Below the pieces are notes generated by a model. That model was not told the origin of the DNA and made no database searches. It saw only the letters and a program-made list of their open reading frames with translations. A DNA stretch of 40,001 nucleotides. It comes from Escherichia coli. GTDB lineage: Bacteria; Pseudomonadota; Gammaproteobacteria; Enterobacterales; Enterobacteriaceae. The translations under genes were made by a program, and so were the position numbers. The DNA is taken from NCBI GenBank assembly GCA_011601165.1, contig GCA_011601165.1_4547.1; one strand, written 5' to 3'. Numbering within the stretch: the stretch's first letter is position 1; every line of letters starts with the position of its first letter. Of the stretch, positions 19,066 through 22,868 are shown in pieces.

Positions 19066-19245
19066 TTATACTCCTACGAAGTATTTCTCTTGGTTGACCA
19101 GAGAGTCTTTGCCTTCAGCGTTACGGAAAGCGCCCTTTACACCACCACCACGTTTAGTCTTGTTCAGCTTGCGTCCCTTAGGAATGTAACCTTCAGTCTG
19201 CTGACGTTCACGGATGCGCTCAAAGTTGATAGTGTTCTGATACAT
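19066..19245 (-). CDS. 1.1: gp1.1-like basic protein, 59 aa
   Basis: MYQNTINFERIRERQQTEGYIPKGRKLNKTKRGGG…; KGRKLNKTKR matches T7 gp1.1 as recalled; missed by ORF track. Confidence 0.65.
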   Translation of the reverse strand: MYQNTINFERIRERQQTEGYIPKGRKLNKTKRGGGVKGAFRNAEGKDSLVNQEKYFVGV

Positions 19246-19279
19246 ATGGCTAAATCTCCAGTAGTGTTTATTTAGGGTT

Positions 19280-19320
19280 AATCATGAAGGCCACGACTTT
19301 TAGTCATGACCTTTAGTCTA
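19280..19320 (-). promoter_or_regulatory. conserved RNA hairpin, candidate RNase III site (R1.1 equivalent)
   Basis: mRNA AAGGTCATGACTAAAAGTCGTGGCCTT. Confidence 0.5.
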
Positions 19321-19341
19321 ATCCTATAGTGATAGTTTAGG
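19319..19341 (-). promoter_or_regulatory. phage RNAP promoter (phi1.1 equivalent)
   Basis: CCTAAACTATCACTATAGGAT. Confidence 0.8.
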
Positions 19342-19342
19342 G

Positions 19343-19420
19343 TTAACCTCTTCTGCGTTGGATTAAAGTGAATACTGCGAGTGCTCCCAGCCACAGGGCC
19401 AGCAACTGTAGGTCTGTCAT
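19343..19420 (-). CDS. 25-aa hydrophobic peptide
   Basis: MTDLQLLALWLGALAVFTLIQRRRG; SD AAGAGGAGG 8 nt upstream; ATG overlaps stop of preceding ORF (ATGA). Confidence 0.4.
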   Translation of the reverse strand: MTDLQLLALWLGALAVFTLIQRRRG

Positions 19421-19617
19421 TTGGTAGCCTCCTCTTTAAGAGCTTGCTCGTGTGTCTGCTTAACCAGCTTAACCAGCCACTTGAATGTTACGTTAAGCCG
19501 TTTTGACAGCTCTGTAGGGATGACCGTGGTCTTCACCAGACCCTTGCCGTTGTGTTCTGTTACAGTCACGATTTGAGTCCCACCATTAACGCCAGTCTGC
19601 GTGTGTGCAAATTTCAT
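19417..19617 (-). CDS. hypothetical protein, 66 aa, immediately after RNAP gene
   Basis: ATG with SD AGGAG spacing 8. Confidence 0.55.
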   Translation of the reverse strand: MKFAHTQTGVNGGTQIVTVTEHNGKGLVKTTVIPTELSKRLNVTFKWLVKLVKQTHEQALKEEATK

Positions 19618-19631
19618 AACTCTCTCTCCTG

Positions 19632-22382: not shown

Positions 22383-22405
22383 TAGTCCTATAGTGATAGT
22401 TAAGT
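22383..22405 (-). promoter_or_regulatory. phage RNAP promoter directly upstream of the RNAP gene
   Basis: ACTTAACTATCACTATAGGACTA; about 75 nt before the gene 1 ATG. Confidence 0.7.
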
Positions 22406-22671
22406 CAGAAACATTTACATATCAGTGGGTTAGCGTGAAGATGACTGAAGTCACCATGAGTCGTGTGCTTGATGGTTGATCGTTGGTCTATCGCCTTCCA
22501 GCCTGAGACCAGAAGTTTACCATCTTCGGTGATCGGTCGTCCACCATACGCCAGACGCAGCAGTTCGGACTTATGGCCCTCAGCTATCATGCGGCGCTGT
22601 AAGAACATGTCACGCTGCATCTGCTCCACACGGCTACGGCTAGATGGTTTGTTAGTGTATGCGGTTTTCAT
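22405..22671 (-). CDS. hypothetical early protein, 88 aa
   Basis: ORF coupled to upstream gene (ATGA overlap). Confidence 0.55.
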   Translation of the reverse strand: MKTAYTNKPSSRSRVEQMQRDMFLQRRMIAEGHKSELLRLAYGGRPITEDGKLLVSGWKAIDQRSTIKHTTHGDFSHLHANPLICKCF

Positions 22672-22868
22672 TTCAGTTTGCTCCCAAGAGTTGCTATATC
22701 CCAGACGTTCGCTAAGTTGCGCATGAATCGTCCGTTAGGTTGACGTACAGTCCAGCGGCCCAGACGTACATAGTTGAATTTGTAGACTTTACGCGCTTTG
22801 TTGATGTCTCTCACCAGCACGTAGGCGATAAGTCCATAGCCTATGGCTATCAATAGTGCAAGACTCAT
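22668..22868 (-). CDS. small membrane protein, 66 aa
   Basis: N-terminal hydrophobic helix MSLALLIAIGYGLIAYVLV then basic tail. Confidence 0.55.
   Translation of the reverse strand: MSLALLIAIGYGLIAYVLVRDINKARKVYKFNYVRLGRWTVRQPNGRFMRNLANVWDIATLGSKLK

Follow-up and report, generated by a model that had tools for sequence, protein, structure and literature searches.

In a 40,001-nucleotide (nt) stretch of DNA from an Escherichia coli assembly (GCA_011601165.1, contig GCA_011601165.1_4547.1; hereafter the window), gene 1, which encodes a T7-type RNA polymerase (RNAP), is followed by two small open reading frames (ORFs) for products of 66 and 25 amino acids (aa). From sequence analysis, we put the probability at roughly 70% that the gene 1 message carries two genuine small genes at its 3' end and that the 25-aa product acts in the way proposed below. 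The 25-aa gene in particular is, as far as sequences tell, a clade-wide, strongly constrained and largely unannotated gene for a predicted membrane microprotein. The window itself is a K1F-like phage (Kayfunavirus) of the T7 group with its genes on the minus strand. It shares 89–94% identity with Kayfunavirus members such as K1F, CR44b, ST31 and LM33_P1 (megablast) and appears to be a complete phage genome inside the E. coli assembly.

The 25-aa ORF behind the polymerase gene

On the minus strand, the polymerase gene is followed by the 66-aa gene, the 25-aa gene, a phi1.1 promoter and a hairpin, in that order (Table 1). Gene 1 is the upstream cistron of the transcription unit carrying both small ORFs, and neither a terminator-like site nor a promoter was found between it and them. 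A preliminary description of this region had reported a 66-aa ORF with the Shine-Dalgarno (SD) sequence AGGAG after the RNAP stop codon and, coupled to it, a 25-aa ORF with a strong SD sequence. Both are indeed found there, on the minus strand. The SD sequence of the 25-aa ORF, AAGAGGAGG, sits within the final codons of the 66-aa ORF, and the ATG of the former shares bases with the TGA stop codon of the latter (ATGA overlap, 19420..19417). The encoded peptide, MTDLQLLALWLGALAVFTLIQRRRG, is hydrophobic as described, with a mean Kyte-Doolittle value of 2.24 over residues 4–20. Moreover, a phi1.1-type promoter with a perfect core (AACTATCACTATAGGA, 19337..19322) begins 1 nt past the stop codon of the peptide ORF (promoter −17 at 19341), in line with the claim that the ORF ends at such a promoter. 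The strong SD sequence, however, is limited to this genome and its close kin, most relatives having only a 4-nt GAGG or GGAG. Still, 23 of the 27 distinct upstream contexts have retained an SD core of 4 nt or more at a spacing of 7–12 nt, despite the differing C-termini encoded there.

By itself, an ORF of 25 codons is unremarkable, as 7 kb of this DNA hold 107 ORFs of 20 aa or more. The peptide ORF rises above chance because of its SD sequence, the ATGA overlap, its presence in all relatives and the purifying selection specific to its frame. It was detected in all 28 relatives compared first and, always with 25–26 codons, in each of the 55 fetched loci that cover the site, and its DNA was found in 222 GenBank phage records, with 80% or more of the ORF covered in every one. 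Even the most divergent 66-aa homologues found are followed by it: the respective peptides are MTDLQWLGVWLLALAVFTLIQRRRG (L053), MTDNQLWLTLWSAFLITFIVFQRRRG, which has a GTG start (L054), and MTQLTLLVIWLAVLAVVIISQRRRG, where a 3-nt spacer replaces the overlap (L055). The divergent peptides MTDLKWLALWLAFLAVYTLIQRRRG, MTQLTLLVIWLAVLAVVIISQRRRG and MTDNQLWLTLWSAFLITFIVFQRRRG retain the length, the hydrophobicity, W10 and the sequence QRRRG. Citrobacter phage CR8 (genus Caroctavirus) has a gene for an unrelated 45-aa protein behind RNAP; nevertheless, the peptide ORF (MTYLQLFALWMGALAVFTLIQQRRG) is still present, between the 45-aa gene and the annotated promoter.

The RNAP/66-aa/peptide arrangement is common to the whole K1F clade (~220 GenBank phages) and is not a recent insertion. 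Earlier, the two genes had been called inserted. This is appropriate relative to T7, whose interval between gene 1 and gene 1.1 had been noted to hold only promoters and the replication origin (phi1.1A and phi1.1B are all that is annotated there). Within the K1F clade, by contrast, the genes are ancestral and standard, and the peptide gene is also found in CR8. When two DNA patterns for the peptide were used, true matches in IMG/VR occurred only on K1F-like contigs of 39–40 kb; two further pattern matches were discarded as out-of-frame chance hits. A metagenome scan with the second of these patterns returned 13 in-frame hydrophobic copies, all of them just downstream of a T7-type RNAP on K1F-like contigs, while the other 11 in-frame matches are not hydrophobic and are unrelated. 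A tblastn search with the 25-aa peptide gave no match, probably owing to the short query and the low-complexity filter. No hydrophobic small ORF with a plausible start signal follows gene 1 in T7, T3, Berlin, KP32, Kvp1 or MmP1, the single ORF met there being a 15-aa GTG ORF in MmP1, and in these phages a phage promoter comes directly after gene 1. Among the phages compared, it is therefore the K1F and CR8 clade that is marked by genes added to the polymerase message before the first middle promoter.

The pattern of substitutions argues for selection on the encoded amino acids. The pooled pairwise ratio of nonsynonymous to synonymous substitution rates (dN/dS) of the peptide ORF is 0.25 in its own frame as compared to 1.1–1.2 in the other two. 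Between allele classes, its own frame is favoured in nearly every pair, with a small gap over the +1 frame for the most divergent class (E_L055). In a set of 40 haplotypes, 43 of the 80 variant alleles proved synonymous as compared to 27% expected (p=5e-7), whereas the same test yields p=0.5 and 0.96 in the other two frames; ten nucleotide versions encode the identical peptide. Divergent alleles, which differ at 20–40% of their nucleotides and share 60–79% identity, are yet open, 25–26 codons long and hydrophobic. Residues M1, T2, W10, Q21, R23, R24 and G25 are invariant and the core varies only among hydrophobic or small residues, while the arginine codons change (CGC AGA AGA, CGC CGT AGA, CGA CGC AGA) and RRR is kept. 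For the 66-aa ORF, dN/dS is 0.33 in its own frame and 1.4 out of frame. The preliminary description had named lack of conservation in relatives as what would speak against the two ORFs; both are kept, each under purifying selection in its own frame. We regard it as highly likely that the peptide is really translated.

It could be argued that the 78 nt of the peptide ORF represent a DNA or RNA element, that is an upstream promoter element, part of an origin, a recombination linker or an RNA structure, and that the open frame is incidental. They are 94–97% identical even where the adjoining 66-aa gene is only 61–65% identical, and the primary origin of T3 lies in this general area, as does that of T7. 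However, variation is concentrated at the synonymous sites of one frame only, and, as mentioned, alleles with 60–79% nt identity stay open, of constant length and hydrophobic. In addition, many genomes have an insert of 250–500 nt between the ORF and the promoter, the annotation of T3 places the origin downstream and not upstream of the promoter, and the ORF region has neither RNA structure beyond that of shuffled sequences (z=+0.83) nor a match in Rfam. We consider an incidental reading frame scarcely credible.

A second contender for the coding potential of this DNA is an overlapping 38-aa ORF in another frame (19394..19278, GTG start at 19394). It is longer than the 25-aa ORF and was chosen by gene callers in MZ234022 (L058 627-743) and PV615263 (L060 627-743). 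However, dN/dS in its frame is about 1.1 without a synonymous excess, its length ranges from 17 to 38 aa among relatives unless it is fused to the next gene, it has no SD sequence, and it passes through the promoter and the hairpin. We give next to no credence to the idea that it is a real gene, and regard these annotations as placed in the wrong frame. A fused 66-aa/peptide product generated by frameshifting or readthrough can also be ruled out, because the frame relation of the two genes differs among relatives: they are joined by an ATGA or GTGA overlap, by a TAATG overlap in CR8 and by a 3-nt spacer in L055.

The exact peptide of the window is absent among 15 billion proteins. Variants are on record for phages GA2A (YP_009324944.1, hypothetical) and IMM-002 (YP_009812842.1, “DUF2842 domain-containing”); both are 25-aa proteins of the same gene at the same position and represent the allele with K5, W6, A12, F13 and Y17. 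The DUF2842 label is not supported, as Pfam has no match to the 25-aa peptide at E up to 10. In seven records (CR44b, K1F, CHX131, vB_EcoP_F, SFP20, NS1 and CR8) the peptide ORF is unannotated.

The 66-aa gene

The 66-aa gene belongs to a known hypothetical family with no function assigned. Its product is a full-length member of phrog_8082 (E=4.1e-38, residues 1–66 on profile positions 1–66), members of which are encoded directly downstream of a T7-type RNAP gene in genomes of ~40 kb, as is the case here. The gene of the same family and position is annotated as “1.05” in Citrobacter phage CR44b (CDM21534.1), as “unknown” in coliphage K1F (AAZ72969.1) and as “hypothetical” in CHX131, and the exact protein is held by NCBI as WP_166429061.1, a hypothetical protein of Escherichia coli. 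Using tblastn, the gene was found in 221 phage records, and 156 clusters were obtained for the protein among 5.8 billion proteins, many of those listed lying on contigs of ~40 kb. A HMMER scan of 1.84 billion representatives gave 24 matches. The true ones are 39–77 aa long, and each of these whose contig was looked up adjoins a T7-type RNAP gene; the remaining matches are long repetitive proteins and thus spurious.

The label “1.05” is positional only. In T3, the interval between gene 1 and gene 1.1 contains a promoter, the origin and an unrelated gene 1.05, whose family (PF25755, Phage_T3_1_05; ~165 aa in relatives of the window) occupies the same slot between gene 1 and phi1.1; the 66-aa protein has no match to PF25755 at E up to 10. 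Moreover, gene 1.05 of T3 and Kvp1 follows its own promoter, phi1.05, and is not joined to gene 1, unlike the small genes of the window.

The 66-aa protein is basic (pI 9.9), and its AlphaFold2 model has a beta-beta-beta-alpha-alpha topology, that is three strands and two helices, with a predicted local distance difference test (pLDDT) score of 78. It has no match in Pfam (E up to 10), NCBIfam or PADLOC. Among PDB sequences, its profile found designed repeat proteins only (E about 1) and no relative, and Foldseek searches with the model against PDB and BFVD gave best E values of 0.25 and 0.08, none of them significant. A chromo-shadow-like topology match from Foldseek was dropped for this lack of significance, and a suspected AbrB/MazE-like motif (G-x-V-x-T-x-V-I-P-x-E-L-S-K-x-L) was dropped as it is supported by no tool.

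Judged by the sequences compared, the 66-aa gene is the variable, mosaic part of the region: it is 61–89% nt identical as compared to 91–96% for the end of RNAP, the peptide ORF and gene 1.1, and among relatives it falls into a 66-aa, a 71-aa and a ~48%-identical allele group. As its product evolves in the form of interchangeable alleles, it has the appearance of a host-interacting accessory factor, a small basic protein with a predicted beta-sheet-plus-helix fold. The peptide is retained beside 66-aa alleles that are only ~48% identical, and the alleles of the two genes combine freely, without co-variation. In one natural variant, P0105 (84 aa), the 66-aa stop codon TGA is changed to TGC, which adds 18 residues and replaces T2 of the peptide by P; this variant may be a sequencing error.

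The free combination of alleles also bears on the possibility that the two genes form a toxin-antitoxin-like pair, in which the peptide would be a membrane-damaging toxin of the type I kind that is restrained by the 66-aa protein. Gene order and ATGA overlap are reminiscent of antitoxin-toxin operons, and in size and build, a hydrophobic helix with a charged end, the peptide resembles the toxins Ldr, TisB and ShoB. However, co-varying partners as expected of a type II system are not seen, and the CR8 peptide sits behind the unrelated 45-aa gene. Furthermore, the 66-aa protein has no match to an antitoxin or DNA-binding family (Pfam, PDB sequences, Foldseek), and no antisense promoter beyond chance was found: the opposite strand has a single sigma-70-like site (19301..19330), as many as expected by chance (1.0). 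Such a pair is therefore highly improbable.

Predicted membrane helix and possible action of the peptide

As judged from its sequence, the peptide is most likely an early single-pass inner-membrane microprotein. Its size and its single hydrophobic segment are those of small single-pass microproteins (at most 50 aa with one membrane-spanning stretch), and the features that mark a real microprotein gene, namely a ribosome-binding site, conservation and selection on the amino acids, are all present. Using Hessa-scale values, the summed insertion free energy is −2.6 kcal/mol for residues 6–20 and lies between −1.8 and −4.2 kcal/mol across all variants. Insertion of the peptide into a membrane is very probable.

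Single hydrophobic helices of at most 50 aa with a charged end, like that of the peptide, are found in YohP, AcrZ, MgtS, Ldr, TisB and ShoB. Searches of Pfam, NCBIfam, PADLOC and PHROGs revealed no sequence similarity of the peptide to bacterial small membrane proteins or type I toxins, from which it also differs in being phage-encoded, in being joined to an RNA polymerase gene and in showing no hint of an antisense RNA partner. Other phages of the T7 group do have annotated hydrophobic microproteins of this size, namely the gene 1.5 products of T3 (25 aa, MWLILFAIVATLGLMVADDNIWPDC, L056 2715-2792) and Kvp1 (26 aa, L132 3572-3652). Like the peptide, they are encoded in the early-to-middle region, but after the early terminator and right after phi1.5. 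They have no sequence relation to the K1F-clade peptide, and their charges are arranged the other way round, an acidic tail following the hydrophobic part. A holin, antiholin or spanin was rejected as an identity for the peptide, its ORF being located not in the late lysis cassette but in the gene 1 unit, upstream of the first middle promoter.

The layout suggests that both small genes would be expressed early, in parallel with the polymerase. After finishing the 66-aa gene, ribosomes may restart at the AUG of the peptide by termination-reinitiation at the AUGA, bind the SD sequence afresh, or do both. Since 25 residues are too short to leave the ribosome before termination, insertion into the inner membrane would be post-translational, a route described for YohP-type small proteins. 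The peptide is predicted to form a single helix (about L4–I20), whose short acidic N-terminus (T-D) would face the periplasm and whose invariant Q-R-R-R-G tail would remain in the cytoplasm, in keeping with the positive-inside rule; the Pf3 coat protein shares this predicted N-out/C-in orientation. The helix may then pack, in trans, on a conserved membrane component, either of the host or of the phage entry or replication machinery. Low variability is seen at L4, L7, W10, L14, A15 and Q21, including the invariant W10 and Q21, and these positions may cluster on one face of the helix. As alleles of the peptide and of the 66-aa gene vary independently, and as the peptide is still there where that gene has been replaced, it would act on another conserved partner, and we think that this partner is something conserved across Enterobacterales hosts or across the phages themselves. 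On balance, we lean towards an action in trans as a peptide.

Which process is affected is a matter of guessing: the peptide could block superinfecting genomes, neutralise a membrane-acting defence or modulate a host membrane protein. Any one named role is doubtful, and this holds for superinfection exclusion as well as for interference with membrane-acting defence. Equally doubtful is the proposal that the peptide is an indispensable early effector of all K1F-like phages which binds one conserved inner-membrane protein of Enterobacterales or the phage DNA-entry channel, for example to shut out superinfecting genomes or to disarm a membrane-acting abortive-infection system. In a weaker variant, peptide and polymerase would share one message as the dose of the peptide must track that of the polymerase.

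The most serious rival to a peptide acting in trans is that the act of translating the 25 codons matters rather than the product. That is, translation would pass ribosomes on to a following gene or maintain ribosome cover over the 3' end of the polymerase message as far as the RNase III hairpin. Indeed, in about half of the relatives a gene of the T3 1.05 family (PF25755) starts 4–8 nt past the peptide stop codon and takes AGAGG of the R-G codons as its SD sequence, and the ORF of the window stops 1 nt short of the promoter and 30 nt short of the hairpin. However, selection acts at the amino acid level, as indicated by the dN/dS of 0.25 and the excess of synonymous changes (p=5e-7), and divergent alleles retain length, hydrophobic core, W10 and QRRRG although 20–40% of their nucleotides differ. 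Furthermore, the ORF is conserved to the same degree whether or not a gene follows it, and therefore no single neighbour in cis is constant. Such a relay is very unlikely.

Several observations weigh against a functional membrane peptide as the explanation. In relatives with a downstream gene, the RRRG codons (AGAAGAGG) double as its SD sequence and, therefore, part of the conservation at the 3' end could be at the nucleotide level. The peptide ORF is as conserved as the phage backbone around it (94–96% nt identity, the same as RNAP), and identity alone cannot separate coding constraint from constraint on the DNA. A conserved helix face is no more than suggested by the data (moment 0.24, permutation p=0.09), and the metagenome contigs L064 and L065 (peptide MTDLQLLSLWLRALAVFTLIQRRRG) carry G12R inside the predicted membrane helix. 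Finally, nothing was found on either gene in the literature on K1F-like phages and phage small proteins, and for neither protein is there a homologue, fold or defence-system match that hints at function.

Promoter, hairpin and the accessory island

Table 1. Features of the region behind gene 1, with positions in the window
Feature	Position	Strand	Basis or remark
Gene 1, T7-type RNA polymerase, 893 aa	19632..22313	-	ORF list; RNA polymerase in annotation of relatives
RNAP stop codon TAA	19634..19632	-	sequence
SD AGGAG of 66-aa ORF	19626..19630	-	sequence; 8 nt before ATG at 19617
66-aa ORF	19417..19617	-	phrog_8082; TGA stop 19419..19417
SD of 25-aa ORF	19428..19436	-	sequence; 7 nt before ATG at 19420
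25-aa ORF	19343..19420	-	TAA stop 19345..19343; predicted single-pass membrane microprotein
phi1.1-type phage promoter, −17 to +6	19319..19341	-	perfect 16-nt core; +1 at 19324
12-bp hairpin from +12 of phi1.1 transcript	19287..19313	-	fold z-score −3.0
38-aa alternative-frame ORF, not part of the system	19278..19394	-	annotated in some GenBank relatives
Gene 1.1, 59 aa, first gene of next transcription unit, end of region	19066..19245	-	phrog_4383, E=1e-41

The promoter core that follows the peptide ORF occurs 11 times in the window, each time on the minus strand, as compared to 0.26 copies expected, and CR44b and CR8 have a promoter annotated at the equivalent place. By analogy, the adjacent hairpin is probably an R1.1-type RNase III site that would end the processed gene 1/66-aa/peptide mRNA; in T3, the RNase III site R1.1 is annotated at the equivalent place, overlapping phi1.1. 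The homologue of gene 1.1 in L054 matches PF08200 (Phage_T7_1_1). Beyond the RNAP region, genes follow on the same strand in the order gene 1.1, gene 1.2 (dGTPase inhibitor), ligase, single-stranded DNA-binding protein and endonuclease.

Another perfect copy of the promoter core is located at 22386..22401 (minus strand), 72 nt upstream of the RNAP start codon (22313), and therefore the phage polymerase may also transcribe its own gene together with the two small ORFs. We know of no T7 promoter at this position just upstream of the polymerase gene. Also upstream of the polymerase gene, at 22668..22868 on the minus strand, is a second early 66-aa ORF with a hydrophobic N-terminus (MSLALLIAIGYGLIAYVLV...), which may encode a second early membrane protein.

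The 11-mer TTAACCCTAAA is present twice on the minus strand, at 19336..19346 and 19271..19281, the two copies being 65 nt apart and flanking promoter and hairpin. Of these, the second continues into ...TAAACACTACTGGAGA and resembles a second promoter that has decayed, comparable to phi1.1B of T7, and that now supplies the SD sequence of gene 1.1.

Across the K1F/CR8 clade, the slot between gene 1 and phi1.1 is an accessory island. It begins with an optional gene for 76–86 aa, followed by the 66/71-aa gene or the 45-aa gene of CR8, and then by the peptide as the constant element; next comes, optionally, a PF25755 gene or a different insert, and last phi1.1. Many genomes carry the aforementioned inserts between peptide ORF and promoter. 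In many relatives, the PF25755 gene (phrog_8103, ~165 aa) comes directly after the peptide ORF (e.g. L024 1524-2039, L054 2286-2780 and L026 1524-2036), whereas the window lacks it. The peptide allele with K5, W6, A12 and F13 goes with the PF25755 gene in all loci but one, the metagenome contig L108. A different insert follows the peptide ORF in Citrobacter phage NS1 (L027, about 1650-1780) and encodes the small hydrophobic protein MSWLTAVFTDGNALRLGWMAVDIIFSPVGVVRGILMWFGLVG of phrog_7319.

That T7-group phages contain small unexplained genes is not a new idea in general, and one practical by-product of the analysis is that some deposited genomes annotate a wrong-frame 38-aa ORF at this site. 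K1F-like phages are widely used in therapy and engineering against E. coli K1, Salmonella Typhi, Citrobacter and Enterobacter. If confirmed, a gene with RNAP-level conservation would be present in all of these phages while being nearly absent from annotations, which is relevant when their genomes are refactored or minimised. It would also provide a clean test case for a phage microprotein, as a single G-to-A exchange removes its start codon and leaves the 66-aa protein untouched. Should the effector reading be true, the peptide would be among the smallest phage effectors known and could serve as a handle on a new membrane target.

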